A stretch of 60,526 nucleotides of DNA from an uncultured archaeon (GCA_964458565.1 CAYWJO010000017.1:1-60526), one strand, 5' to 3'. Numbered from the stretch's first letter, positions 16,054 through 34,045 are shown. Numbers and translations: made by a program. Notes: generated by a model not told the origin, from the sequence alone.

Positions 16054-16596
16054 GTGGAGAATATGTCCATGAGTCTAATTGTTGGAGCCATAGGTTTTTC
16101 GATGTTGGTAATAATTAGTGGTATCTGTAGTCGTAAATCAAAAGATACAATTCATGACACTATGGAAACTTATGTTCCAGAAGTTGAAGAACCTAGAGCT
16201 GAACTGAAGGAATTACCTATTGAGACCATCGAAGGTATTGGTCCGAAGTATGGAGCAATGCTAAGGGATGAAGGTATTGAAACAGTTTCGGAATTATTAA
16301 TCACTGACCCTATCCGCGTTGCAGAGATTTGTGGTGTAGGAGAATCACAGGCGCAACGATGGGTTGCTATGAGTCGGTTTTGCTGGCTTGATTCCGTTTC
16401 GGAGGAGGATGCTGAGGCAATCGTCTATGGGGGTGGTATCCTTGATATAGATGAATTAGCTGAAGCTGATGCTGAAGAATTACTTGAAGAGATTGAGAGT
16501 GCAGTTGGTCGAGATATTGTGAGAATTCCTGAGGGATACACATTCAATCTTGATAAGGTCAAGAGCTGGATTAAAGAAGCAAAAAGTCTTGAATAG
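16054..16596 (+). CDS. Membrane-anchored helix-hairpin-helix protein (DUF4332-like)
   Basis: N-terminal TM helix; HhH motif IEGIGPKYGAMLRDEGIETV; second HhH-like unit; terminal VKSWIKEAK. Confidence 0.8.
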   Translation: MENMSMSLIVGAIGFSMLVIISGICSRKSKDTIHDTMETYVPEVEEPRAELKELPIETIEGIGPKYGAMLRDEGIETVSELLITDPIRVAEICGVGESQAQRWVAMSRFCWLDSVSEEDAEAIVYGGGILDIDELAEADAEELLEEIESAVGRDIVRIPEGYTFNLDKVKSWIKEAKSLE

Positions 16597-20036: not shown

Positions 20037-21209
20037 ATGAATCGTCCTGTTTTCATCGCTGGTGTTGGAATGACTCCATTTGGAGTGCTACATGACTCAA
20101 TTACAGAATTATCTAGCAAAGCATCTCTTCAAGCGCTCCAAGATTCTGGTCTTGTTGATGCAAGAATCGATAGATTAGTTGTCGGTTGTCAGAATCCCGA
20201 TGAATTCACTGGGATTGGACATCTTTCAACTATCATGAGTGATCAACTTGGTCTTGTGCCAAGCGGCGCGACGCGCGTAGAAACTGGACCCTCCTCTGGT
20301 GCAAGCGGATTTGAGGTGGGCTGTTCATTCATTGCTTCTGGTCTTGCAGAATCTGTCTTAGTGATTGGGGCTGAGAAGATGTCTGAGGTGGGTCGTGGAA
20401 TTGCTTCAAAGATCCTAGCAAAGATGATGTCCAATGAGAATGAGACCAGGTATGGAGCTACACCAACTGCTCTTGCCGCATTGATTACACGAAGATACAT
20501 GCATGAACACGGTCTCACTCGAGATGAACTCTCTCTTGTACCTGTAAAAGCACATAGGAATGGAGCAAAGAATCCTCTTGCTCATTTTCAAAGGGAAGTG
20601 ACTATTGATGAAGTAAACGTATCTCGAATCGTTGCTGATCCACTCACTTTGTACGATTGCTCTCCGATGTCTGATGGAGCTGCAGCAGCTCTACTAGTTT
20701 CTGAAAAGTATATTCCGAAACTACCGAGCAAGGAACTCATTGCGAAGGTTCTTGGTGTTGGGCATGCGACTGATTTTCACGCAATCCAACACCGTGATTC
20801 CATAACATCTTTCAAAGCCACTAAGGTTTCTGCTGATGCTGCATTCAAGATGGCAAAGTGTACAGTCAAAGATATTGATGTCTTTGAATTACATGATGCA
20901 TTCTCAATCCTTGAACTTGTGAATATGGAAGACATTGGTCTATTTCCAAAAGGTGAATCTATCAACTTTGTAAGAGATGAGATAACTGCTGTCCACGGAG
21001 ATACACCTGTCAATCCCACCGGGGGGTTGAAATCCCGGGGTCATCCAACCGGGGCTACAGGAATGGCTCAAATTCACGATTTGGTCCGTCAATTACGAGG
21101 TACAGCTCCTAAAGGATTGCAAGTGCAATCTGCAAGAAAGGGGCTCGCTCATAACATAGGTGGACTTGGAAATAACATGGTTGTGTCCATACTCGAATGC
21201 TTTAGCTAG
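20037..21209 (+). CDS. Archaeal/SCP2-type thiolase-family protein lacking the nucleophilic Cys
   Basis: GVGMTPFG, GAEKM, NPLAHF, DGAAA, HDAF, GHPTGATG, HNIGG; RVETGPSSG where thiolases have RVEAACASG. Confidence 0.88.
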   Translation: MNRPVFIAGVGMTPFGVLHDSITELSSKASLQALQDSGLVDARIDRLVVGCQNPDEFTGIGHLSTIMSDQLGLVPSGATRVETGPSSGASGFEVGCSFIASGLAESVLVIGAEKMSEVGRGIASKILAKMMSNENETRYGATPTALAALITRRYMHEHGLTRDELSLVPVKAHRNGAKNPLAHFQREVTIDEVNVSRIVADPLTLYDCSPMSDGAAAALLVSEKYIPKLPSKELIAKVLGVGHATDFHAIQHRDSITSFKATKVSADAAFKMAKCTVKDIDVFELHDAFSILELVNMEDIGLFPKGESINFVRDEITAVHGDTPVNPTGGLKSRGHPTGATGMAQIHDLVRQLRGTAPKGLQVQSARKGLAHNIGGLGNNMVVSILECFS

Positions 21210-21385: not shown

Positions 21386-22576
21386 ATGCTTTCAAGGATG
21401 GATAGTGAAATGCCCGAAGGTTTGGCAGTACTGAAATGGGATGATGAGCTAGGGCCAGTAGTGACATCAAAAACACCAAAATCTCTCAAAGTGGGACTAG
21501 ATCCCACAACGAGTATGCGAGTATATGGAATCGCAACACTTGGTGAAACAGAAGAATCACAAAAACCCGGCTTTAGTTCTTTAGCTTTTGATGAGTTCAA
21601 GCTCGCCGTATATTATGGTGGGCTCAATATGCACTTGAAAGGACAACCGTCAATGGTATTTCTTGTCTTGCAACCTGATGAAGATTCTGATGTTTACAAG
21701 GATGCACTACCAGAAATAGCGACTCGGATTTTCTTGAATGCAGATGATGACAAATATACAGAGATGGTTCCCAAGCTATTCAAGCAGATTGCACGATACA
21801 CTCAGATGACTCCTGAACAACGCCAAGCATCTATCGTAAGCGATCCTGTTCGTCGTGCTATTCTGCAGACTTTGATGAAGAACGGAACAATCCAATCGTC
21901 TGACCTTGAGCAAATCATCTTCGAAGAAGTAGGCAAGAAGATTGACGTTGACATGGTTCTTCGTCCACTAGTAAAGATGGGAATCATTGCAACTGGTTGG
22001 ATTGAAGGACTTGCTTCAGAGGTCATTTATCTCACACGTGCAATTTTCCTTCTTAGAAAGACTTCTCTTGAATCAATTAAGGCTGCAAGGTCTGGAAAAG
22101 TGCCGCCTGAAGTTGGAACGCAGTACTTAGATTCAAGCAAGCGATACCATCGTGAATATGTTGCCAAACTTCGAAAGGATCTAACTGAAGCAATTTGGAT
22201 TGAGGCTGAGGATCTAACTAGATATATGCTAGACTTTGAGGCATACGATATAGTCCAAATCTTAAGGAAAGGTCCACAATTAACAGAAAAATTAGAGGCA
22301 TTGCTTGATGCATCCAAACCCAATCTTAGGAAGCAATTGACAAACCTTGAGAAAGCAAATATAATTTTCAGGACCAGCGACGAGGACGGGAAAGAACATG
22401 TTCTGTTAAAGTGCAATCCTGAAGTAGTCACTGTTTATCCAGAATGGCTAATCGAACGTACAGTTGAGCTTTACAATCAAGAGGAAATACCAAGTCGACA
22501 GGCTATCCATTATCTCGAAGTTCTAAAGAATTTCCATCCTGATTATGCAACTTCAGCAATGATGGAGGGCGTCTAA
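21386..22576 (+). CDS. Asgard-type protein with uDENN/longin-like N-terminus and winged-helix-like C-terminal domains
   Basis: LAVLKWDDELGPVV resembles the (F/W)DxxxGP first strand of uDENN/NPR2-type longins; DPVRRAILQTL...VLRPLVKMGII and NLRKQLTNLEKANII are wHTH-like. Confidence 0.65.
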   Translation: MLSRMDSEMPEGLAVLKWDDELGPVVTSKTPKSLKVGLDPTTSMRVYGIATLGETEESQKPGFSSLAFDEFKLAVYYGGLNMHLKGQPSMVFLVLQPDEDSDVYKDALPEIATRIFLNADDDKYTEMVPKLFKQIARYTQMTPEQRQASIVSDPVRRAILQTLMKNGTIQSSDLEQIIFEEVGKKIDVDMVLRPLVKMGIIATGWIEGLASEVIYLTRAIFLLRKTSLESIKAARSGKVPPEVGTQYLDSSKRYHREYVAKLRKDLTEAIWIEAEDLTRYMLDFEAYDIVQILRKGPQLTEKLEALLDASKPNLRKQLTNLEKANIIFRTSDEDGKEHVLLKCNPEVVTVYPEWLIERTVELYNQEEIPSRQAIHYLEVLKNFHPDYATSAMMEGV

Positions 22577-22577
22577 G

Positions 22578-25500
22578 ATGTTCAGAAAGCGAATTACAAT
22601 TATCGCTGCAATAGCATTGTTTCTGATGTTGCCAACAGCGGGTAACATGGGCTCTCCATCGACATCATCTATTGCAGATTTCATACCCGAAACTGATGGA
22701 TACCAAGTCGCCGCTGATCCTGATGCAGCTAATTGGTGGAATTCGACATACATCTATCGACGGTATGTCAATGTTTCGGAACCGGGATTAGCTGGTCGGA
22801 CTCTAGTTCCGGTCCATGTATATCTGGAATTCGAGAACGGGCATTGTTATGGTGATTCTATTAGAGTTCTATATTACACCGATCCTGATTCAGTAGAGCT
22901 GCCTTTCCAAGTATGGAATACGACCTATGATTCAACTGGAAACTACATTTTGTCAACGCGTGTGTCCTTTATGGTAAATGTCACACTCAGCTCCTTTGAT
23001 CAGAATTACTACATTTACTATGCCAAAGAAGATGTGGGTTCAGTTAGTTATCCTAACTTCTATCCGTTTGTATACAAAAGCTATACCTTCTCATTGGTGA
23101 ATCTTGCATCATACTATGATGATAACAATTACTTCGTTGAGAAATGGGATGATGCAACCGAGAGATGGGTCGATCCACGAACAATAGATACACGTTGGTC
23201 CTCATCACAAGTTACTCCTGACAATGTACCTAGCGGGATGTTGGATGCATTTGAAGTAATGAGATATGAACCAACTGCACACTCATACACTCCGGGATAC
23301 TTCTGGGGTTCATATGCAGTATACTCCAACTATCCCATGGCTGTATCAATGGGCCAAGGAAATATAGGCCAAAACTCAATTGTAAATGACTGGTGGCCTG
23401 GTGTTGATCAAGTCAGTTCTGGTACCGGGACTGAATATGTCCTTGGTGGTGTTGAAGGAGCTAGTGGTGGAGATAAGGGGAAATATTGGATTCAAGCTGT
23501 AGAGAACCATACTGAAGTCTACGTCTGGACCGCATTGCTTATCGAGGATACTGGTTGGGAGTTCTACAATGGAAGCTCCGTTTTATCATGGCCTGCTACT
23601 CTTAAGGAAGGTGAATACATCTCAAAGAAGAATGTTTTCTATACAAGTTATTTGTATGTGAATACAACTGCACCAGTGATTACACGGCAGGGTGATGTTG
23701 ACTCTTCATATGCACGAGACATCATGGGTTTCTATCCTGATATTAATGGTGCATTAGCTGGTGAAGAATTCTTTATGATTGACATGGGGAATAATGCTGA
23801 TGTATTCAGGCTTACAAATCTTGGTGATAGTAATGCTATTGTTTCCTATAGACGAAAGTCGACTGGAGGCTGGTCAACTTGGACTTCATTGGGAACTATC
23901 GGACCCAACGGTTCCAGTACGATAGCTAAAGGGTCCGCTGGTAGTAGTGATCCTGAGGATATACTTCATGTCAAGAGTTCAACTGGCTCAATGCTAATGA
24001 TTGAAGGAATTTACAATTATGCAACAATGAGCAATGACGAAGGCGATTGGGCTCCGGCAACAACTGGGGACCGTTTTGGTACAACATTCAAGCTATGGGG
24101 TGTCAGATCATGGAAATTCATGTTTGTCGCTACTGAAGCTGCTGAAGTGACAATCACTGGATACAATGGTGGTACTGTCACAATTCCAGCAGGTGGTGTC
24201 AGTGAATTTAGACCTTGGTCTACATCTGCTTCTCTTTTCCACATAGTTTCAAACACATCAATTGGCGTTGTTGATGTAGGACAATTCTCCACATCTTCTC
24301 CTTATGCACCAACTGGAGACACCGGATATGGTTGGCAAGTTCCTGCTTATGTGCCTGAACAAGATCAGAATGGAATTTCCATTATGCCTAGTAATGAGCG
24401 CCATCTCTTCGAGTTTGATATCACAGTCGTTGATGTTGATGGGTTCGTAGTTGAAGGTGCCACAGTAGGATTGTACGTTCCTGGTACTGGAGTCCTCTGG
24501 GAGGATTTGAATACTAAGACGAGAACTGGAACATCTGATTCGAATGGCCTTGTGATTTTCGAAGGTCTCGATAATGAAACATATGAGATTCGAGTAGAGA
24601 TTGATGCAAAATCTTGGCTAACCACATCACTCTCCTCTGTTGTTGTTCAGAAGTATCAGAATGAGTCCATTGTAGGCTCAGTATCTCCGGTAACAATAAC
24701 GCTTCCAATGGGCTCTTTCGATGTCCACTACGAAGACTTGATTGGAAACGTAATGGCACAAACCGCTGATGAAACAACCACGATCCGTGCCAGCACTGAT
24801 GGATCTGGTGATGGATCATCCTATTATGGTCAGACCACGACAAACAGCACAGGCTGGGCCAGTTTCTATAGGCTACCAGTTAATGATTATTCTTTCTTTG
24901 CACAATATACTGGGAATGTGTCCTCATACTCCTATGTTCAGATGAAGGAATATGGTACATGGTCACTCTCGAGTAGTGATTTTGGTAATGGTCCGTTCTC
25001 AAAGAACTTTGTTTTACCCTTAGTCACACTCAATCTGAATGTACTAAGCTGGGATGATCTAGCAGTTGAAGGCGCTTACATAAAAATAACCAATTCACTT
25101 GATACACTTGAGGCTTATCCACTAACACGTATAACAGATGCCAATGGTGATTATGTATTCTATCGTGTTGTGAATGGAACTTGGAGCGTTGATGTCTGGA
25201 AGAATGATGATTATCCTGATACACCTGTTGTACGAAATGATACTGTTTCATTAGACAATATCCAAGGTGAATATTCCAAGACTATCGAGTTGGCACTAAC
25301 TCGTCTAATTGTTCAGGTGAAGACCGATCCTGTGACTGTTGTTATTGGTGCACAGGTTAACATTACTCTGATAGATTCAGGTCTTATCGCCCAAGGTGTT
25401 ACAAATAGCACTGGACATGTCACATTCTTCAATATCCATGGTAACATGAGTTCACCCTACTTAGTAGCCTATAATCTGACTGTACAATCAGGTGACCAGA

Positions 25501-28500
25501 AGAACGATACTGTGACATCCATTAAATGTGACTATGATTGGAGATACATCAATGTCATATACATAACAACCCCAACGTATAATGACTATTATACGGAGCT
25601 GAACTCTACAAAGTACTATATCACGGTGAAATATGGTCAGAACGCAACTTTCACGGTTGGATATTACGATCGAGACGATTCTGGTACAGGAACGGTTTCC
25701 TTAGATGCCTCATCATGGGTTAATTTCTCAATCTATCTAGAAGGCGCTTACATAGGAACAGGAAGTTGGGCTTTCACAGGACCTGGCGACATTTGGGTTT
25801 CACAATCCTCACCGATTAATTTCGATATGATTGTATCAACATTTTACTGGGGTCTTGATGTCTCTGATTCGCCATATACAATACGTATCAATGCACATAC
25901 TGATTCGCCATGGCTGAATCCTGCAGAGATTCTAGTGTATATCACAGTTCAGAATGCACAGACTAGTACAGGTATTGGTGATGCATCAATCAGCGAATAT
26001 TACAAGACTCATGATTCACATGATTTCTGGTTGATTGATATTACGAGCAATCCTGATGTAAATCTAACCTCTCTCGACTTCTTCACATATTCAGTGAAGG
26101 AAGGTGCGAGCGAAGTTCGAAACGGTGCATTGATTACAGTATCACATATCTATCAACTACCTGAGGATGCGCTTCACGGACTTGAGGTTGGAACCTATAC
26201 CTTGACAGTCTTCCTAGGAAAGCAGAATTACCTTAATCAATCTGTCATAATAGATATTGAGATTACTGCTGTTCCAATGGCTGTATCAAATATCAACTTT
26301 GGAAGCTATGTCTGGGATACAACCGGTCAAAGCTTCACATTCAGCTATATCTTCAATTTTGATGGAAATACTACAAACCCTGACTTGGCAGCTGTGTACG
26401 TGTCAGTTCAATGGTTGACATATTCCGGTGGTATCGCATATGGTTCACCAATAGTTGCTACAATTGATTCTGTTTCAAATGAGATTACCTTTGACTTTCC
26501 CGGTGACCATGTTCCGTCAGGAAATTGGAATGTTTCCATTACCTGTTCAAAGGATAACTATGGCATGGCCATTGGTTACTTAACAAGTCCCGTTATCGTA
26601 CTTGACGCTCCAACTATTTTAACATCCGAAACTTCTTCGAGTGTCATTACTCCTTGGCAGACTAGTGCAGTCATTGAAGTCCGATTTGCTCGAGTCAGTG
26701 GAGATGTAGGTCTCATCGGAGCGAGCCTAGCCCATAACTGGACAGATTCTGTATCACTCATCTATCAAGGTGATGGTGTCTATAGAATCACCCTAGCAAC
26801 CTCCATTGCAGCAGACATTTATCCAGTACGATTAACTCTCTCAGCAACTAATCACGAGAACAGCTTTGTTGAGGCAACAGTTACAATACTCATACCTCTG
26901 CTTATCGAAAGCGATTATTCTTCAGCTGAAGATCCACTTGAAACATACTGGACGCGAATGTTTAACATCAGTGTCATGTTGTTGGACCAGTCTAGAGGCA
27001 ATGCCCCAGTTGAAGGTGCAATACCTCAGTATACCTGGCATCTTCAGTTTGTCGTTGATAAGAGTGGCACTCTAGCAAATCTGACTGGAGGACTATATTA
27101 TGTGACTCTCAATGCACAAGATGCGATTCCATTAGATGATTTGTATAACGTATTCATCACTGTCACTATGCCTGGTGCATCCGATGCATCAGTCACGATA
27201 TTCGTAAAAATCAGTGCAGTACCAAACGAGATTGTCATTCCAATGGACTACGAGTTCATGGAAGCATACTATGCAGATAGCTTCGCGTTATCTTTCTATT
27301 GGAATAACACTCTTGATAACGAAGCAATCAAAACATTTGACATAGCGACTTATCGAGTTCTTGGTATCACAGATAATATCACTACAGGCGTAAACAATGG
27401 TAATGGATGGTATACAATTATTGTCAATACCGCTGCGTTGAGTATGAATGCAGCTGAACAGGGAACGGTCTACATGATTCGAATCACCATGTTTCTGGAT
27501 GGATTCCAAGCTCATGAGTTTGCATATTCAATCATCCTTGTAAAAGAGACTCCCGCTTCCCTCGTTGTTGAATCAATTGACAGAGTGAACTGGTCTGACT
27601 CCTTTGACATTACAGCAAGACTCTATGATGCTGAACATGGGGGTCTCATCTATGAAGGTGCAACTGTCACTGTTCTTTATGGTGTACATTCTGAAGTGAT
27701 GACCTATAATTCACTAGAGGGTACTTTCACTGCTTCAATTCAATCTGATGAGTGGTTTGCAGCAAGTACAACTCCATATGCTTTGACGTTCACCTATATC
27801 TTACCAAACTACATAGATAGTGCAAATACTACGGCTGTCTTTATTGATCCGATTCCAGGTATTATCATCAAGGAATTACCTGTAGTCTATGAATACACTT
27901 GGACAAACACTTTCTTGTTACGTGTTGAAGTCCATGAAGACTATGGTACAAGATCTCCCCTACAGAACGTTATGGTTTATTATCAGTGGAGTGGAACTAG
28001 TGAACTATACCCGCTAACATACTACTTTGATATCTATGATTTCTATAATGTCACAGTATTAACTGGAGCTGTTCCTGCTGGAACATATGACTTGCTGGTT
28101 ATTGTAGATAATGAGAACTATACCATTCCTGCCCTAACGATACCTGTGGTCATCAACAAGGTTGATACTTCACTAGAATCAGACTTTAATTCCTATGAGG
28201 TATATTATGGTGATACTGGTTTAGCTATCTTACTAAATTACAGTGTAGCTGATTCAAGCGTAGACTTAACCGGACCACTCGCTGGTGCCATTGTTAGTAT
28301 GAACTATGCTGGTTCTCTGTATAATGCGACATATCAATCTGGAATCTATAGATTGAATTTCAATCCATCAGAGATGAATGTATCCTTAGTGCCAGGTCAA
28401 TTTACATTAACGATAACAGCCCATCGACCAAACTATGAGATACAAACCATTAATCCAATTCTTACAATTGTTGCAAGGACTTCATTAAGTGGACCTGAAA

Positions 28501-29849
28501 TTCTTATGGAGGAAGGACAACCTGTCGTTGTGGTGGTTCAGTATCTTGATATCTCATCAGGCGTACCAATTGGACCTGATACGATAACATCTCTGACTCT
28601 TGTGACATCTACAGCAACCTATGAGTTCGACGACTTCACTTGGAATGGAACTCACTATTCCATCACACTGACTTCTGAACAGATTGGGCCAGTACGAGCA
28701 GAAGCATATCAATTGCAAATAAATGCAGAAGCGCCTCTCTATGAATCACAGGATGAACAAGTGATTAGAATTACCATCTCTGAGGCAATGATTGATGTTC
28801 TGGGATTCATACCCCTTCCCTTCCTGCAAGGTTTGATTGTACTTCCCGTATCCCAATTTCAGCTTATTCTCATGATGTCTGTAATCTTCATTGGTGCCGT
28901 TGCGATTGGTGTCGGTGTCCGAAGATGGAGAGTGCCCTACCAGATCAAGCAGATTAACAAGGCGGTTGGAGCGATGGAGGATGGAAAACATGCTTCTGTT
29001 GACAACATCAAGAATATGGGTATGGTTGTATCAGAACTACTTGCTGCTGGGCTCGCTGAGTTTGATATTGCTGCACCTATCATCGATGTGGTCGCTGTTA
29101 GTGAATATGAGGATATTCTCACTGACGATACCGAGGAGCTCCTTGATGAGCTTGATGCATTAGATGGCATAGGTGTAGATGATTCAACTCCCTCTGTCCC
29201 TGAAGATGACTTTGAGTCTGAGCTCGCAGCTGAGCTTGATGACCTGGTGGAGGATTCTGATGTAGCAGCTGTTCCAGAACCAGAGCCTGAACCAGAGCCA
29301 GCCATTGGGGACGAAGAGGTTGAGGTTGATTCTGAGGATGTTCCTGAACCAGAGTTCGAACAAGAACCTGATGTTGAGGTTGAAGAGGCTGAGGCTGAAG
29401 TTGTTTCTGAACCTGAATGGACACTTGAAGCAGAATCTGAAGAGGTGTTCGAAGAACCTAAGGAACCTTCTGAAGATGAACCCGAAGCAGATGTTGAGGA
29501 GTTTGAAGAAGAAGAGCCTGAGCTTGAATCAGATGATGTGGATGATGAGGATTTCGAACAAGACGATGATTCGTCAGATTATGAAGAGGAATCCACTGAG
29601 GATTTTGAACTGTCTAAAGATGAAGCGATAGTGGATGATACTGAAGAGAACTTGGATGATGATTCATCTAATGATGTGCTCGATGATGAACCAGATGAAG
29701 CTGAGCCACTCTCAAAAGCTGAACTCATTGAACGTCTACCTGATGAGATCAAGGAATCCATGTCTGAAGATGAGTTGAAGAAACTCTCTAAGAAAGAACT
29801 CGAAGCTCTCCTAACTTCAATTGAACATGAATCCGATTTGGAGGAATAA
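22578..29849 (+). CDS. Giant type I membrane surface protein (2423 aa): DUF2341-like, IgGFc-binding-like, prealbumin/Ig-like repeats, TM helix, acidic cytoplasmic tail
   Basis: Signal peptide; WWNSTYIYRRYV (DUF2341-like); repeated V.GA.V...T.SNG units; G.G.Y.I repeats; TM ILMMSVIFIGAVAIGVGV followed by RRWR; ~250-aa D/E-rich tail. Confidence 0.88.
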   Translation: MFRKRITIIAAIALFLMLPTAGNMGSPSTSSIADFIPETDGYQVAADPDAANWWNSTYIYRRYVNVSEPGLAGRTLVPVHVYLEFENGHCYGDSIRVLYYTDPDSVELPFQVWNTTYDSTGNYILSTRVSFMVNVTLSSFDQNYYIYYAKEDVGSVSYPNFYPFVYKSYTFSLVNLASYYDDNNYFVEKWDDATERWVDPRTIDTRWSSSQVTPDNVPSGMLDAFEVMRYEPTAHSYTPGYFWGSYAVYSNYPMAVSMGQGNIGQNSIVNDWWPGVDQVSSGTGTEYVLGGVEGASGGDKGKYWIQAVENHTEVYVWTALLIEDTGWEFYNGSSVLSWPATLKEGEYISKKNVFYTSYLYVNTTAPVITRQGDVDSSYARDIMGFYPDINGALAGEEFFMIDMGNNADVFRLTNLGDSNAIVSYRRKSTGGWSTWTSLGTIGPNGSSTIAKGSAGSSDPEDILHVKSSTGSMLMIEGIYNYATMSNDEGDWAPATTGDRFGTTFKLWGVRSWKFMFVATEAAEVTITGYNGGTVTIPAGGVSEFRPWSTSASLFHIVSNTSIGVVDVGQFSTSSPYAPTGDTGYGWQVPAYVPEQDQNGISIMPSNERHLFEFDITVVDVDGFVVEGATVGLYVPGTGVLWEDLNTKTRTGTSDSNGLVIFEGLDNETYEIRVEIDAKSWLTTSLSSVVVQKYQNESIVGSVSPVTITLPMGSFDVHYEDLIGNVMAQTADETTTIRASTDGSGDGSSYYGQTTTNSTGWASFYRLPVNDYSFFAQYTGNVSSYSYVQMKEYGTWSLSSSDFGNGPFSKNFVLPLVTLNLNVLSWDDLAVEGAYIKITNSLDTLEAYPLTRITDANGDYVFYRVVNGTWSVDVWKNDDYPDTPVVRNDTVSLDNIQGEYSKTIELALTRLIVQVKTDPVTVVIGAQVNITLIDSGLIAQGVTNSTGHVTFFNIHGNMSSPYLVAYNLTVQSGDQKNDTVTSIKCDYDWRYINVIYITTPTYNDYYTELNSTKYYITVKYGQNATFTVGYYDRDDSGTGTVSLDASSWVNFSIYLEGAYIGTGSWAFTGPGDIWVSQSSPINFDMIVSTFYWGLDVSDSPYTIRINAHTDSPWLNPAEILVYITVQNAQTSTGIGDASISEYYKTHDSHDFWLIDITSNPDVNLTSLDFFTYSVKEGASEVRNGALITVSHIYQLPEDALHGLEVGTYTLTVFLGKQNYLNQSVIIDIEITAVPMAVSNINFGSYVWDTTGQSFTFSYIFNFDGNTTNPDLAAVYVSVQWLTYSGGIAYGSPIVATIDSVSNEITFDFPGDHVPSGNWNVSITCSKDNYGMAIGYLTSPVIVLDAPTILTSETSSSVITPWQTSAVIEVRFARVSGDVGLIGASLAHNWTDSVSLIYQGDGVYRITLATSIAADIYPVRLTLSATNHENSFVEATVTILIPLLIESDYSSAEDPLETYWTRMFNISVMLLDQSRGNAPVEGAIPQYTWHLQFVVDKSGTLANLTGGLYYVTLNAQDAIPLDDLYNVFITVTMPGASDASVTIFVKISAVPNEIVIPMDYEFMEAYYADSFALSFYWNNTLDNEAIKTFDIATYRVLGITDNITTGVNNGNGWYTIIVNTAALSMNAAEQGTVYMIRITMFLDGFQAHEFAYSIILVKETPASLVVESIDRVNWSDSFDITARLYDAEHGGLIYEGATVTVLYGVHSEVMTYNSLEGTFTASIQSDEWFAASTTPYALTFTYILPNYIDSANTTAVFIDPIPGIIIKELPVVYEYTWTNTFLLRVEVHEDYGTRSPLQNVMVYYQWSGTSELYPLTYYFDIYDFYNVTVLTGAVPAGTYDLLVIVDNENYTIPALTIPVVINKVDTSLESDFNSYEVYYGDTGLAILLNYSVADSSVDLTGPLAGAIVSMNYAGSLYNATYQSGIYRLNFNPSEMNVSLVPGQFTLTITAHRPNYEIQTINPILTIVARTSLSGPEILMEEGQPVVVVVQYLDISSGVPIGPDTITSLTLVTSTATYEFDDFTWNGTHYSITLTSEQIGPVRAEAYQLQINAEAPLYESQDEQVIRITISEAMIDVLGFIPLPFLQGLIVLPVSQFQLILMMSVIFIGAVAIGVGVRRWRVPYQIKQINKAVGAMEDGKHASVDNIKNMGMVVSELLAAGLAEFDIAAPIIDVVAVSEYEDILTDDTEELLDELDALDGIGVDDSTPSVPEDDFESELAAELDDLVEDSDVAAVPEPEPEPEPAIGDEEVEVDSEDVPEPEFEQEPDVEVEEAEAEVVSEPEWTLEAESEEVFEEPKEPSEDEPEADVEEFEEEEPELESDDVDDEDFEQDDDSSDYEEESTEDFELSKDEAIVDDTEENLDDDSSNDVLDDEPDEAEPLSKAELIERLPDEIKESMSEDELKKLSKKELEALLTSIEHESDLEE

Positions 29850-29858
29850 AAGACTGAT

Positions 29859-29883
29859 TGATAGAGAGATATTCCCTCTATCA
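29859..29883 (+). terminator. Hairpin after the giant surface-protein gene
   Basis: TGATAGAG...CTCTATCA, 10 nt after the stop. Confidence 0.45.
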
Positions 29884-30073
29884 TCGCTAATCTTTCACTA
29901 ACGAGCCTAAAATGAGGAACTGAAAAGCAATGGGTGCGAAAATGCTCTATAATAGCTCGATGGAAAAGACAAACAAGATAGCCTCAAATGAGGTAATTCC
30001 CATTTCTCTCTGTCAAGTTTATCCTTACAAGACCAGACAATACCTTATTTCCAGCAGCGGAGGCTTACATTGA

Positions 30074-30955
30074 ATGATACGTGAGATTCATGTATTTAGA
30101 GATAATCAAACACTCTTCAGTGACGTAATCGTCCCCAACAAAGATCTGAGCACAGACGCAATTATGATGCTCGTTTCTTCATCTACGAAAAAACTCCAAG
30201 AATGGAAAATTGATAGCATGGAGATTGAACGCTTTCGCTACGTGTACCTGAATTCGCATGAAACTCAATTCGTTATTACTATGGATAGACAAGCTTCCCT
30301 GCAGAAAGTCAATGAAGCGATGATGAATATAGTGTCAAAATTCATGACTGCATTTGAGAGATGCCTGGAATCTGATGAGTGGAAATCTACAGACTTTAGT
30401 CCCTTTGGTGCAGGATTCAGACAGATTATAGGTCGAATCCCCGTCAAAGTTTGTCTAGCTGGGCACGGTGGTACTGGAAAAACCACGCTTCTTGAACTAG
30501 CGACACTTCCATCACGAGGGCCTCCCCAACAATACGTACCCACTTTTTTTGGTGATAAAGCTCTTCTGAAAGCAGATTTTGACCCATATGTCTTCAGTAT
30601 GTTCGACCTTGGTGGACAGGATCGATTCGTTCAAGAATGGGGAAAGATCATTCGTTCTGGTAGTATGGTTGTTATTGTATCTGATTCAACAACAGACAAC
30701 ATAGCTTGGACAAAACGTGTCGCATACCCTGTATTAAAAAGCGAACTTCCCTATGCTCGGATTATTGCTATAGCTAATAAACAGGACCTTCAGGGTGCTC
30801 TCTCCCCGCAGGAGGTTGGAAAAAGACTAGGTGTTCCAGCCTATGGAATGCAGGCGAACAAGAGAGATTTTAGAGAGAGATGGTTAAAATTACTACGTGC
30901 TCTTGCTTTTGAAGAAGTTGATTTCAATATTGTAGGAGACATAGAGGTTGAATGA
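30074..30955 (+). CDS. Longin domain fused to an Arf/Sar-like small GTPase
   Basis: N-terminal MIREIHVF...FRYVYLNSHETQFVIT (longin-like); G1 GHGGTGKTT, G2 YVPT, G3 FDLGGQ, G4 ANKQD. Confidence 0.88.
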   Translation: MIREIHVFRDNQTLFSDVIVPNKDLSTDAIMMLVSSSTKKLQEWKIDSMEIERFRYVYLNSHETQFVITMDRQASLQKVNEAMMNIVSKFMTAFERCLESDEWKSTDFSPFGAGFRQIIGRIPVKVCLAGHGGTGKTTLLELATLPSRGPPQQYVPTFFGDKALLKADFDPYVFSMFDLGGQDRFVQEWGKIIRSGSMVVIVSDSTTDNIAWTKRVAYPVLKSELPYARIIAIANKQDLQGALSPQEVGKRLGVPAYGMQANKRDFRERWLKLLRALAFEEVDFNIVGDIEVE

Positions 30956-31529
30956 TATGTCCGAATTTGATGATATTACTAAGAGTATAGTCAGTGAAGA
31001 AGAACGGAAAAAGCTGATTGATGAAATAAGTAAAATGAAGGATGTTCTAGATTCATTCAAGTATGGTCTGAACTTTGAGCAATTTGCTGATGAGATCTTC
31101 AAGACTATTGATCGACAAACCCTCGCCATAAAGAAATTGGATGAGCTGATGTCTGATATTGTTTCAAGAATGGCACGTCTTGAATCTCAGTTTAAGGAAG
31201 GAATCAGCATACGTGTATCTTCAATGGCTGAAGGAGCGATAGCTGAAATCCAAGAGGGTTCTGATATTATCCTTGATGATTCAGTATCTAGTGTACGTGA
31301 CTCAGAAATTCCTGAAGGCGATTCAAAAGATACTGCTGAACTTGAACAAGAAGCCGCTGAGATTGAGGTGAAAATGGCACGGTTATTTGAGAAAGAGAAC
31401 GAGCTTCTCGAGATGGTGCATAATGATCCAGCTGGTGCTGAGGAATATGAAGACAAAGCCAGAGTAGCACGCGAAATGAGAACTGAGCTTGAGTCAAGAC
31501 TCAAGAAAATCAAAGAACAACTTCGATGA
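30948..31529 (+). CDS. Acidic coiled-coil hypothetical protein
   Basis: Two heptad-rich helical regions; overlaps the GTPase stop; SD GAGGTT upstream. Confidence 0.8.
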   Translation: MNDMSEFDDITKSIVSEEERKKLIDEISKMKDVLDSFKYGLNFEQFADEIFKTIDRQTLAIKKLDELMSDIVSRMARLESQFKEGISIRVSSMAEGAIAEIQEGSDIILDDSVSSVRDSEIPEGDSKDTAELEQEAAEIEVKMARLFEKENELLEMVHNDPAGAEEYEDKARVAREMRTELESRLKKIKEQLR

Positions 31530-31544
31530 AGAAGGTGATTATAG

Positions 31545-31919
31545 TTGGGACTATTTGATAAATGGCGTCGAAAATCGGATACAAGGACACAAGCAGTTGT
31601 TCGAGGAAGAGAACATATGCGTCCTGCTAAGCCTCTACCTGAGAGAGAGGAACGTGTTAAATTTGATGAGGTAGCTCCAGAAGTACAGCAAAAGCTCCTA
31701 TCCTTGGTTGCAGAATATGAACGTCTCTCTAGAAGACGTGATGAGCTCCAGAGAGAGCGTGGTGAATTGACATTCAAACTGGATAAAGGGGAGCTAACTG
31801 CAATGGAGTTTAGAAAACAATTGAGGGAAAAGATACAGGAAGCATCTCGTTTAACTGAACGTATGAAGGAAACATCCAATCAGCTCTCTGCTTTAGGATA
31901 TCGTGGTGTGTTAAATTAG
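31545..31919 (+). CDS. Small coiled-coil protein with N-terminal amphipathic helix and steadiness-box/SHOCT-like hairpin
   Basis: Starts MGLFDKWRRK; contains LTFKLDKGELTAMEFRKQLREK; SD GGTGA upstream. Confidence 0.75.
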   Translation: MGLFDKWRRKSDTRTQAVVRGREHMRPAKPLPEREERVKFDEVAPEVQQKLLSLVAEYERLSRRRDELQRERGELTFKLDKGELTAMEFRKQLREKIQEASRLTERMKETSNQLSALGYRGVLN

Positions 31920-31929
31920 AGGTGTATGA

Positions 31930-33309
31930 GTGTCGGATAAAGAACTTGATATGTCTGAACAAGAAGAGCCAGACGTATCCGAGGAAACAAAACGCCTTAT
32001 GGATGAAGCCATGAGTAAGGCAGATACCACTCTTGAATCTGACGTAGATGATGATATACCAAAACAGGCAAATACAACTACTACATTGCTTGATGAAACA
32101 TTTGAGAATATCAAAGAGCGAATTGAAGGTCTTATTCTAGAGATTGAAGATTCTACTCGAAGCACTGAACCACAATTCAATGAAAGGATGGCTTTAGTCC
32201 TCGATTCACTTTCAAGTAGATTACGGAGTGCAGGACTTGGTATCTTTACAAACACAGCAATCAAAATTGTGAACGATGAGTTATCGCATGGGGTAAATGG
32301 GAGTGCTTTTCTCAGTCCTATTTATGAAACGATAAGCGAAACGATGAGTCGAGTTGAAGATATTATCACAAAGACTCATCGTGGCGCATTGAAAAGCTTG
32401 ACTTTTCGAACTAGTGATCTTCAAGGTCGAATAGTACAGAATTATGCAAGACTGAATGAAATGGAAACAGAACTCGCATCAACTAAAACCGAATTGAGTA
32501 AGTGGCGAGCTCGATCAAGAGAACTTGATGAAATAATTAGAAGAAGTGAGGAATCTATTGAGGCTCAAAATAAGAAAGCTCAGCAACAACAAGAAGTAAT
32601 TGATGAACTTCAGAATCTGCTTACTCAGCGTGAGGAAGCAATTACTGTCCTAAGAGGGGAGCTAAGTCAATCTCAAGCACACATTGAACAGCTCCAACAA
32701 ATGATTGAGAAATTGGATAATGCTGAGGAGATAGTAAGTGATTACGAAGACAAGATAATGGAGATTTCTAGGCTTGAAGGACAAATTACTGAGCAGCTAG
32801 AACTTATAGCTCAGAGAAACTCATCTATTGATAGAATAAGTGCTCAAATAGAGCAACTTCAGATTGATAATGCTGAGTTAGAAACAAAGTTCGAGAACTT
32901 GAAACGCGAGTCCTCCATGGCTATTGGAATAAAAGACTCCCTTGAAGATGATGTTTCTAAGCTAAACGGGCAACTTGAAGAGCTTCGTGCAAGATGGGAC
33001 CTTCTTTATCAAGTCGCTGAGGATGAACCTGCATTCAAAGCATATTTCCTTGTCGCGGGACGTGATACTACTTGGTTACCTCTCTCACATCTATCATCAG
33101 CACTTGGTATTCCCTCTGTTGCTCTAAGAAGGCAGCTACAGAAATTCATTGATGCTGGGCTTATTGAAATAGACGATGACAAGATTCGTCCTCGCACGTT
33201 GTCTGAAGTTTCTGAAACCGCAAAGGAACTTGACAAGCAGATACTCAAAGAGGCTGAATCTGAACTAACACAGACTAGAAATGATAAAACCATTGAAGAT
33301 GCTGATTAA
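31930..33309 (+). CDS. Long coiled-coil protein with C-terminal winged-helix domain
   Basis: About 200 aa of continuous heptads, then LPLSHLSSALGIPSVALRRQLQKFIDAGLIEIDDD (wHTH). No P-loop. Confidence 0.8.
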   Translation: MSDKELDMSEQEEPDVSEETKRLMDEAMSKADTTLESDVDDDIPKQANTTTTLLDETFENIKERIEGLILEIEDSTRSTEPQFNERMALVLDSLSSRLRSAGLGIFTNTAIKIVNDELSHGVNGSAFLSPIYETISETMSRVEDIITKTHRGALKSLTFRTSDLQGRIVQNYARLNEMETELASTKTELSKWRARSRELDEIIRRSEESIEAQNKKAQQQQEVIDELQNLLTQREEAITVLRGELSQSQAHIEQLQQMIEKLDNAEEIVSDYEDKIMEISRLEGQITEQLELIAQRNSSIDRISAQIEQLQIDNAELETKFENLKRESSMAIGIKDSLEDDVSKLNGQLEELRARWDLLYQVAEDEPAFKAYFLVAGRDTTWLPLSHLSSALGIPSVALRRQLQKFIDAGLIEIDDDKIRPRTLSEVSETAKELDKQILKEAESELTQTRNDKTIEDAD

Positions 33310-33330
33310 CAACGAAAACGAGGACTTGAC

Positions 33331-33666
33331 ATGAGTAAAACAATGGATGATGTTATGAGATTTCTCGAGAACTACACGCTTGCGTGGCATCACTGGTTGA
33401 TTCTCCTATCACTTTTGAAACTCAATGGCAGTGGCACAAAACATCAGATTTTTCCAGTGTTCAAGAAGGAGGGTTTCTCTCCCCATGCTATTGAGGATAT
33501 TTTCAGGACTGATTTGCTTGAATTAGGACCTTCGGTTGAAGTCGAAGGTGGTCTTGATAATCTTCAAGATAGTTCAATGATATACCTTACTGATGAGCCA
33601 AAATTCCGTTCTTTTCTTAAGAAAAACCTGAAATCCGTAGTTCGTACGCTAAAGATGAGGAAATAA
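33331..33666 (+). CDS. Hypothetical protein (111 aa, possibly winged-helix-like)
   Basis: SD GAGGA upstream; in-operon position; WLILLSLLKLNGSGTKHQIF pattern. Confidence 0.75.
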   Translation: MSKTMDDVMRFLENYTLAWHHWLILLSLLKLNGSGTKHQIFPVFKKEGFSPHAIEDIFRTDLLELGPSVEVEGGLDNLQDSSMIYLTDEPKFRSFLKKNLKSVVRTLKMRK

Positions 33667-33709: not shown

Positions 33710-34045
33710 TTGTGGGAAGAAATGCCAATCGAGGCCTCTATTTGTGCAAATTGCAAGAAAGCAATTGTTCCTCCTAGATCCATGTGTCCTTATTGCAATT
33801 CTGGTGCACACTTAATGAATAAGACCGCCGTTGGTGATCACGGGTCAATACTTAGTTATTCCGTGCTTGAAGTTCCCCCTGAAGGATTTGATGCTCCTCT
33901 ATTATTGGCATTAGTTGAACTTGAAAAAGGAGCTGTTGTTCTTTCAATGGGAAATTCAAAGAATTTGATTGATGTTGAGATTGGGGCTAAAGTCAATCTA
34001 GAAAAGGATGATTCCGGTAGATTCAGATTTTCTATAGTAAAATAA
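33710..34045 (+). CDS. DUF35 Zn-ribbon/OB-fold protein (thiolase partner, ChsH2-like)
   Basis: CANC...PPRSMCPYC, G.ILSYS, PPEGFDAPLLLALVELE, IGAKV. Confidence 0.9.
   Translation: MWEEMPIEASICANCKKAIVPPRSMCPYCNSGAHLMNKTAVGDHGSILSYSVLEVPPEGFDAPLLLALVELEKGAVVLSMGNSKNLIDVEIGAKVNLEKDDSGRFRFSIVK

Follow-up and report, generated by a model that had tools for sequence, protein, structure and literature searches.

A conserved, apparently undescribed Asgard gene module that combines a giant surface protein, an NPRL2-like longin protein and a longin-Arf-like GTPase

Seven genes between a thiolase and its DUF35 partner

We analyzed a 60,526-nt stretch of DNA from an uncultured archaeon (GCA_964458565.1, CAYWJO010000017.1), here called the window, and within it a block of seven genes, g1 to g7, at 21386-33666 (all positions are counted over the whole window). 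This block is a genuine Asgard gene module, which is conserved and apparently undescribed. The parts are of known kinds: a protein with a longin and two winged-helix domains (g1), a giant single-pass surface protein (g2), a fusion of a longin domain with an Arf-like GTPase (g3), three coiled-coil proteins (g4 to g6) and a small conserved protein (g7), for which we propose a joint mechanism below. By the source names of close homologues, the genome carrying the window (G000) belongs to Thorarchaeota, and the DNA data sets containing matches to the stretch are salt-marsh metagenomes. The listing of open reading frames (ORFs) places all seven genes on the + strand, separated from g1 to g7 by a 1-nt gap, a 224-nt gap, an 8-nt overlap and gaps of 15, 10 and 21 nt, which matches exactly the co-oriented, tightly spaced arrangement claimed in the sequence-only reading, an earlier account of this DNA.

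The gene g2 (22578-29849) encodes a 2423-aa type-I giant surface glycoprotein, as judged from its signal peptide, its single transmembrane (TM) helix and the distribution of its N-glycosylation sequons: the ectodomain of ~2,070 aa carries 40 N-x-S/T sequons and weak Pfam matches to CarboxypepD_reg and Ig-like domains, while the 309-aa cytoplasmic tail carries zero sequons, is 39% Asp plus Glu and has a net charge of -106. The TM helix (residues 2096-2114, 28863-28919; Kyte-Doolittle 2.66) is followed by RRWR and is also the single one in the orthologues, which are 40-50% identical. Next to it, ~100 juxtamembrane residues (2115-2215, 28920-29222) are strongly conserved in 11 g2 orthologues, and the rest of the tail drifts. 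It consists of an acidic low-complexity stretch that varies among orthologues (29223-29705) and a C-terminal helical module (29706-29846, LSKxELIExLPxEIKE...) found in 4 of 12 aligned orthologues and also in a 3638-aa giant of the genome G003. Across the phylum, the giants linked to g1, whether fused or separate, carry R-[IV]-P-x-[FYQ]-[VI]-K-[KQ]-[IV] directly after the TM helix; in its shorter form, R-[IV]-P-x-x-[VI]-K-[KQ], the motif occurs once among the G000 ORFs of at least 300 aa. By its conservation and its motif, the juxtamembrane segment is a candidate docking site for g1, which it most likely recruits. The G003 giant, which comes from a genome without g1 or g3 orthologues, lacks the motif, and its TM helix runs directly into the acidic tail. 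A strict rule that the motif requires g1 was rejected, as G002, G003, G005 and G010 have other giants with weak TM-proximal matches (22-29% identity); only the strong form of the motif tracks g1.

The gene g1 (21386-22576) encodes a 396-aa protein that we regard as a putative cytoplasmic adaptor of NPRL2-like architecture. The AlphaFold2 model, built from 63 diverse relatives, is confident (predicted local distance difference test, pLDDT, 93.3; predicted template modelling score 0.88) and consists of a longin domain (residues 9-140, 21410-21805), winged helix 1 (residues 143-226, 21812-22063, delimited by DSSP elements of the model, with a nearly invariant R224), helical linkers and an ArsR/SmtB-like winged helix 2 (residues 284-352, 22235-22441). 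The top Foldseek ranks are NPRL2/NPRL3 of GATOR1, yeast Npr2 and FLCN/FNIP2; against NPRL2/3, 300-450 columns are aligned with a high root-mean-square deviation (rmsd). In the exhaustive aligner VIA, the longin domain (residues 5-141) matches the Loki longin 8yqg (Z 11.7), NPRL2 (8fw5_B, Z 11.4) and Npr2 (Z 11.0), followed by VAMP7 (Z 10.3), FNIP2 (9.8), Lst4 (9.6), FLCN (9.3) and C9orf72 (9.0). In the ESM Atlas the full-length matches are hypothetical Asgard clusters (TM-score 0.84-0.88); among named families, eukaryotic NPR2 comes next, at 0.32-0.39. The label first given to g1, uDENN/longin-like, is therefore half right: the longin part stands structurally, while the DENN part falls, because winged helices follow the longin domain, the model contains no DENN or dDENN domain after it, and matches to DENND1, DENND10 and DENND11 are confined to the longin part.

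The only Pfam matches of g1 are to ArsR-type helix-turn-helix (HTH) families at residues 287-327, above the cutoffs of HTH_20 (5.7e-8; 33 bits versus 27) and HTH_5 (24.4 versus 22). Winged helix 2 resembles BigR (VIA, Z 9.7) and SmtB (Z 9.3), PH1932 matches g1 at E 8.8e-5, and source annotations name the protein an ArsR-family regulator (ArsR/HxlR/MarR in databases). Sequence-level kinship with NPRL2, FLCN or C9orf72 was considered and rejected, since Pfam gave none and a PDB profile search returned only winged-HTH proteins; the relation is thus drawn from fold and motif. The motif is W18-D19-D-E-L-G23-P24 at the N-terminus, where at least 90% of 63 sequences (alignment A1) share W18 and G23, respectively, and the Pro at position 24 varies across the family. 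A GP motif at the start of β2 is restricted to the longins FLCN, NPRL2, C9orf72 and SMCR8, which are of the GTPase-activating protein (GAP) type, and one class of Asgard longins to which no GTPase partner has been assigned; in C9orf72 the motif residues are W33-D34 and G38-P39 (PMC12290439). The spacing in g1 is identical to that in C9orf72, and g1 carries both the GP motif of GAP-type longins and the WD motif of C9orf72.

The 293-aa product of g3 (30074-30955; AlphaFold2 pLDDT 88.3) is 74-85% identical in 21 of the 24 genomes of the host's family (f1). Its longin domain (residues 1-120, 30074-30433) has the topology β-β-α-β-β-β-α-α, and residues 1-122 match the VAMP7 longin in VIA with Z 15.7 and rmsd 2.2 over 116 aligned residues. 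The GTPase domain (residues 121-293, 30434-30952) matches Pfam Arf (PF00025) at 4e-12, with 46.4 bits versus a cutoff of 22.3, so that the longin-Arf assignment stands. In 34 orthologues and paralogues, G130, G135-K136-T137, T157, D178-x-x-G181-Q182 and N235-K-Q-D238 are invariant or nearly so, and both the profile score and the intact G1-G5 motifs place g3 in the Arf family. Two Arf hallmarks are absent: the N-terminus is the 120-aa longin domain instead of an amphipathic helix, and WDxGGQ is replaced by FDLGGQ at G3 (WDLAGQ in paralogues). The highest sequence identities are to Arl13B (28%), Arf6 (24%) and Sar1 (22%), and the structural matches include Arf6 (Z 19.6), RagD (Z 16.3) and LokiRagO (Z 15.5). 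Gtr1_RagA (PF04670) gave no match at E≤1, and relative to Rag the domain order is reversed, the extra domain being a longin.

The genes that follow encode g4 (30948-31529, TTG start), a 193-aa acidic coiled-coil protein; g5 (31545-31919, TTG start), a 124-aa basic coiled-coil hairpin protein of pI 9.97 with the N-terminus MGLFDKWRRK; g6 (31930-33309, GTG start), a 459-aa acidic protein in which a long coiled coil is joined to a winged-helix-like domain at the C-terminus (33028-33219); and g7 (33331-33666), a 111-aa protein with 46-77% identity in the family and 14 invariant columns. Only coiled-coil-type matches, such as SMC and Rad50, were obtained for g4 to g6, which bears out their original description as coiled-coil proteins. 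In g4 the coiled coil is followed by a Pro/Glu linker and a SHOCT-like hairpin (L.DL.F.Y..G.I..EEY); in g5, Gly2 is invariant and MG[LI]FD.WRRKK is conserved (alignment A4); and g6 matches SMC_prok_B at 1.7e-11 over residues 139-364, with weak HTH matches at residues 381-421. No Pfam, NCBIfam, PDB or ESM Atlas assignment was found for g7. The idea that g7 is a winged helix related to g1 was discarded (hhalign probability 7.6%; nothing below E 0.1 in the PDB profile search; only unnamed Atlas clusters, up to 0.90).

The cassette stands among metabolic genes. Its 5' side is occupied by genes of carboxylase type (HMGL-like/PYC_OADA and a biotin carrier), followed by a thiolase (20037-21209, +; Pfam Thiolase_N/C); on its 3' side lie a DUF35/ChsH2 OB-fold protein (33710-34045, +; Pfam OB_ChsH2_C and zf-ChsH2) and then an acyl-CoA dehydrogenase (ACAD). 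The 12.3-kb cassette thus separates the thiolase from its DUF35 partner. Within the 224-nt gap between g2 and g3, 10 nt past the g2 stop codon, there is an inverted repeat (29859-29883, GATAGAG/CTCTATC with a 9-nt loop). The RNA evidence consists of assembled contigs from one salt-marsh metatranscriptome, which leave most of the block uncovered: one contig, 100% identical to 31805-32001, spans the g5/g6 junction, and a second, also at 100% identity, lies inside g2 (27068-27386). The bridging contig is a weak hint of joint transcription at that one junction and does not fix the operon boundaries.

Recurrence of the genes across Asgard genomes

The association of g1 with a small GTPase is repeated elsewhere in the same genome. 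All three full-length g1-family genes of G000 lie directly upstream of g3-type GTPases (contigs C17, C2 and C3), while GTPase-domain ORFs make up 32 of the 5555 ORFs of at least 80 aa (~0.6%); since, in addition, the gene order is kept in ~20 of the 24 family genomes, the arrangement goes beyond chance. Paralogous g1-g3 pairs are likewise found in G002, G003, G005 and G010, and 30%-identical relatives are paired in other families (G030, G031, G040 and, in reversed order, G035). The next gene after the distant pairs is often a g4/g5-like coiled coil with a SHOCT-like hairpin. The build of g4 recurs 3' of g3-like genes in paralogous and distant operons, g5 homologues come after the g1-g3 pairs of another family (G030/G040), and the G031 operon contains a 157-aa counterpart of g6.

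The g1 family itself is widespread: a genome search found it in 99 of 121 sampled Asgard genomes and 20 of 26 families, with as many as 12 copies in one genome, and among 1.8 billion representatives searched there were 176 g1-family clusters. Our neighbourhood survey covered 43 g1-family genes at 40 loci from ~20 Asgard families. Next to 17 of these genes stands one for a co-oriented single-pass protein of ~700 aa or more, placed either before or after g1; 14 have a longin-GTPase as neighbour, and 4 have both kinds of neighbour. In at least nine cluster representatives the giant and g1 are joined in one polypeptide of 590-2,550 aa with a single TM helix, in which ~100 aa separate that helix from a C-terminal g1 module. 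Fusions that look full-length start with a hydrophobic segment resembling a signal peptide, a laminin-G/Ig-type ectodomain is present in three of the five fusions that were scanned with Pfam, and the two fusion genes that could be located adjoin genes for Arf-like GTPases of ~306 aa. The recurring neighbourhoods in varied order, the paralogous pairs and these Rosetta-stone fusions uphold the proposed link between surface protein, longin and GTPase.

Within family f1, the order PYC-BCCP-thiolase-g1..g7-DUF35-ACAD is kept in ~20 of the 24 genomes, as the synteny survey was expected to show. Because the flanking metabolic genes are equally conserved, this within-family order is weak evidence of joint function, and the weight comes from the paralogues, the distant families and the fusions. 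In the sister genomes G005 and G010, which lack g1 and g3 orthologues, the thiolase directly adjoins DUF35, so that the seven genes are present or absent as one unit. A different division is seen in G025, from a sister family, where a giant is immediately followed by a g1 orthologue on one contig, and g3, a g4-like gene, g5, g6, a 510-aa protein with a g1-type N-terminus and g7 lie on another. The block is therefore a composite of two sub-units, g1+g2 and g3-g7, in agreement with the position of the hairpin-bearing 224-nt gap. The sequence-only reading had taken the block for one module; as an indivisible unit this does not hold, because G025 splits the parts, G002 keeps a subset, and most g1-giant pairs elsewhere occur without a GTPase. 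Tethering by the coiled coils and the roles in membrane remodelling, protrusions or division suggested in that reading gained no support from our data.

Several further observations concern these loci. The 510-aa protein of G025 (L026 15420-16952), between g6 and g7, has the N-terminus MPAGIALCSWNEKEG. The thiolase-DUF35 site of G003 (L092, G003:C42, 553-11469) holds a lone 3,638-aa surface protein and none of g1 or g3-g7; this giant has a signal peptide, one TM helix at about residue 3452, an acidic tail and a g2-like C-terminal LSK...LP..IKE module. A short segment between g7 and DUF35 at L014 (G020; 16109-16318) is 38% identical to the g2 tail module (residues 2342-2415). Two giant genes, in tandem or flanking g1, occupy the cassette locus at L013, L016 and L018 (G018, G011 and G019), and G019 has a second g1 copy ~8 kb upstream. 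Beside an Arf-like GTPase and a giant-g1 fusion, L033 (12594-13421, -) encodes a 275-aa protein whose N-terminus resembles a gelsolin/villin repeat by eye (YLWKG..SS...KF.GA). In G000, C61:5719-10636 contains three more longin-type ORFs without a GTPase domain, one resembling the g1 longin (E 1.9e-14) and two the g3 longin (E ~4e-15).

Some g1-like proteins have C-terminal extensions, and these were considered as possible g1-GTPase fusions. That candidate was rejected: in nine such proteins scanned with Pfam no GTPase domain was found, six having no Pfam family in the extension and three having TPR repeats (P0181, P0183 and P0188), two of them with SIR2_2 as well (P0181 and P0183), which points to an output that differs from GTPase pairing. 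In P0142 the g1 module is at the protein's own C-terminus.

A proposed membrane-anchored GTPase module and its alternatives

We consider it reasonably probable (about 0.6) that the block is a membrane-anchored small-GTPase module made of two linked sub-units and working as follows. From the linkage, the fusions, the folds, the intact G motifs and the behaviour of the cassette, we infer the physical contacts, a regulation in which g1 could serve as a GAP, a guanine nucleotide exchange factor (GEF) or a scaffold, and the cellular output. The glycosylated type-I protein g2 would recruit g1, a longin protein of the NPRL2/C9orf72 type, through its juxtamembrane segment. The predicted catalytically competent Arf-like GTPase g3, in which a longin domain takes the place of the Arf amphipathic helix, would pair with g1, probably through the two longin domains, as happens in NPRL2-NPRL3, FLCN-FNIP and C9orf72-SMCR8. 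Through this pairing the GTPase would be kept under the surface protein and its nucleotide state controlled. In its GTP-bound form, g3 would organize the coiled-coil proteins into a sub-membrane scaffold, in which the basic N-terminal helix of g5 may contact the membrane.

Prediction of the g1+g3 complex is consistent with such a pairing. The interface score ipSAE was 0.42 (runs 0.42, 0.47 and 0.35), compared with 0.00 for the best control; the runs agreed in at least 75% of contacts, and the partner pLDDT was 81. The mark applied to this score was calibrated on solved complexes, of which 58 of 80 passed, and on mismatched pairs, of which 2 of 110 passed; scores passing at 0.60 or under comprised 7 of the 80 solved complexes and both passing mismatches. 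Thus the expected complex of the two longin proteins passes the mark, and it does so within the weak band.

Several findings weigh against this reading of the block. The complex prediction lends it weak support, given that band, and since longin-GTPase complexes have already been solved, the pass may reflect likeness rather than binding. Neighbourhoods are far from uniform: ~60% of the sampled g1 genes lack a giant next to them and about two thirds lack a neighbouring GTPase, in a survey whose loci are the best hits per family and hence a non-random sample. Within f1, the flanking PYC-BCCP-thiolase and DUF35-ACAD genes are as syntenic as the cassette. In G002 only g1-g3-g5-g7 are kept, with g2, g4 and g6 missing; the best match there to the g2 juxtamembrane segment has 29% identity (E 1.7e-4) and there is no close g2 orthologue, so that the giant is dispensable or replaceable. 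As to a regulatory role of g1, Pfam NPR2 (PF06218) and NPR3 (PF03666) gave no match at E≤1, no conserved Arg equivalent to the R78 finger of NPRL2 was found in the expected region of the g1 family, and while most relatives read WDxRxG, the cassette orthologue group has Glu21 at a position that is Arg or Lys in ~65% of the family.

A bolder form of the same idea would make the cassette an archaeal outside-in receptor-GTPase system, in which the giant, as a surface adhesin or receptor, recruits through its juxtamembrane segment an NPRL2/C9orf72-type longin regulator that switches the Arf-like GTPase, which then assembles the coiled-coil scaffold under the membrane, and would derive the eukaryotic longin GAP complexes (GATOR1, FLCN-FNIP and C9orf72-SMCR8) from Asgard plasma-membrane receptor modules. 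We regard this extension as unlikely.

The winged helices of g1 invite another explanation, that of transcriptional signalling: g1 would bind DNA and use its longin domain to sense the GTPase or the receptor tail, the winged helix of g6 and perhaps g7 would also bind DNA, and a signal at the surface would reach gene expression. The ArsR-type Pfam scores, the likeness of winged helix 2 to ArsR/SmtB repressors (Z 9.3-9.7), the PH1932 match, the database annotation and the HTH-like C-terminal segment of g6 all speak for it. It has to contend with the architecture of the fusions, in which g1 forms the cytoplasmic C-terminal part of a membrane-anchored giant, an argument tempered by the existence of membrane-tethered regulators of the ToxR type. 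Moreover, the closest overall architecture of g1 is that of NPRL2/NPRL3, whose winged helices mediate protein contacts, and g1 is acidic (pI 5.2), with winged helices that are near neutral (net charges +1 and -1). We therefore give transcriptional signalling a small chance.

A comparably small chance falls to a role in biogenesis or targeting, in which the longin and the Arf-like GTPase would act like the SRX domain of SR-alpha and SR-beta, the chains of the signal recognition particle (SRP) receptor, or like a coat or adaptor, and would serve the insertion, sorting, glycosylation control or turnover of the giant. A longin domain bound to an Arf-like GTPase is indeed the SRX-SR-beta arrangement, and SR-beta chains match the g3 GTPase at Z 15.7-17.5. 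Giants of 1,500-4,000 aa are numerous in these genomes, and the thiolase-DUF35 site of G003 also holds a giant gene. Nevertheless, the Pfam SRPRB match is weak (0.0067) and below its cutoff, and g3 lacks the TM anchor of SR-beta. The g1 module joins the giant, by linkage or fusion, at its cytoplasmic C-terminus, a part that does not emerge until translation has ended, and g1-g3 pairs also occur without a giant, as in G002 and in two paralogous pairs of G000 with none nearby.

Least probable is that the genes have no joint function, being neighbours by descent within f1, where the flanks are as conserved as the cassette, and associated more widely as a by-product of the many longin, GTPase and giant genes of Asgard genomes (up to 12 g1 copies per genome and ~30 GTPases), as seen in a survey of non-randomly chosen loci: the three G000 pairs drawn from so few GTPase ORFs, the recurrence of the pairings in varied order, in varied orientation and as fusions where the flanking genes differ, the presence or absence of the whole block as a unit between thiolase and DUF35, and the overlapping or 1-nt-spaced start and stop codons, which point to co-translation, all stand against it.

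Relation to known systems

Small GTPases of eukaryote-like type, together with longin or roadblock proteins, are encoded by the dozen in Asgard genomes, and their partners and location have still to be established. Both longin proteins of the cassette fit architectures already catalogued among Asgard eukaryotic signature proteins (ESPs): 'NPRL2-like longin' proteins, with Thorarchaeota among the carriers (Liu et al., bioRxiv 10.1101/2020.10.19.343400), and longin-GTPase fusions (Klinger 2016, through PMC4917890; Tran 2024, PMC10933270). These papers treat single proteins and do not report the g1-g3 pairing, giant or coiled-coil partners, or fusions. They place most ESP and GTPase genes outside conserved neighbourhoods, and Tran et al. 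(PMC10933270) found that the GTPase genes of MK-D1 do not, in general, share operons with longin genes. Whether operons would reveal the targets of Asgard GTPases was raised as an open question by Dey, Thattai and Baum (PMC4917890), and Novák Vanclová et al. (PMC12290439) posed the question of the GTPase partners of Asgard longins with the GP motif. A full-text literature search found no published description of this gene set, in line with the initial statement that no operon of this composition had been described, and neither the Vargová et al. preprint nor the Heimdall compartment preprint mentions the module. The cassette names a matched set, in which a membrane protein with its own juxtamembrane signature stands beside a longin protein bearing the GP motif and an Arf-like GTPase whose catalytic motifs are intact, and it gives an unexplained eukaryote-like GTPase a candidate membrane partner and a candidate regulator.

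Four known systems offer partial parallels. The SRP receptor shares with the cassette a longin that binds an Arf-like GTPase at a membrane, but SR-beta has its own TM anchor, SRPRB scores below cutoff for g3, and none of the cassette proteins contains an NG domain. Bacterial MglA-MglB likewise places a prokaryotic small GTPase beside a regulator of the longin/roadblock superfamily, with coiled-coil or scaffold partners at the membrane. There, in contrast, MglB is a homodimeric roadblock protein instead of a longin-winged-helix protein, the Arg finger is intrinsic to MglA, and there is neither a surface-protein partner nor a GTPase-longin fusion. C9orf72-SMCR8 (CSW) and FLCN-FNIP illustrate the principle of a longin heterodimer; C9orf72 shares the W-D-x3-G-P spacing of g1, and the client of CSW is an Arf GTPase. 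These complexes have DENN domains after the longin where g1 has winged helices, and g1, whose GAP role is putative, has Glu at the Arg/Lys position.

The fourth parallel is GATOR1/SEACIT, whose NPRL2-NPRL3 (Npr2-Npr3) subunits resemble g1 in having a longin followed by winged-helix-type domains and a GP motif before β2, and whose relation to Rag is echoed by the genetic pairing of g1 with a small GTPase that bears its own longin/roadblock-type dimerization domain. The differences are that the cassette has no DEPDC5 partner, that g1 has no Pfam NPR2/NPR3 match and no identified Arg finger, and that g3 is Arf-like with an N-terminal longin whereas Rag has a C-terminal roadblock. The anchor also differs, being Ragulator on lysosomes in the one case and a giant plasma-membrane surface protein in the other. 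If the link is true, a regulator resembling GATOR1, FLCN and C9orf72 would operate at an archaeal cell surface, which would bear on the origin of GTPase-controlled membrane systems.

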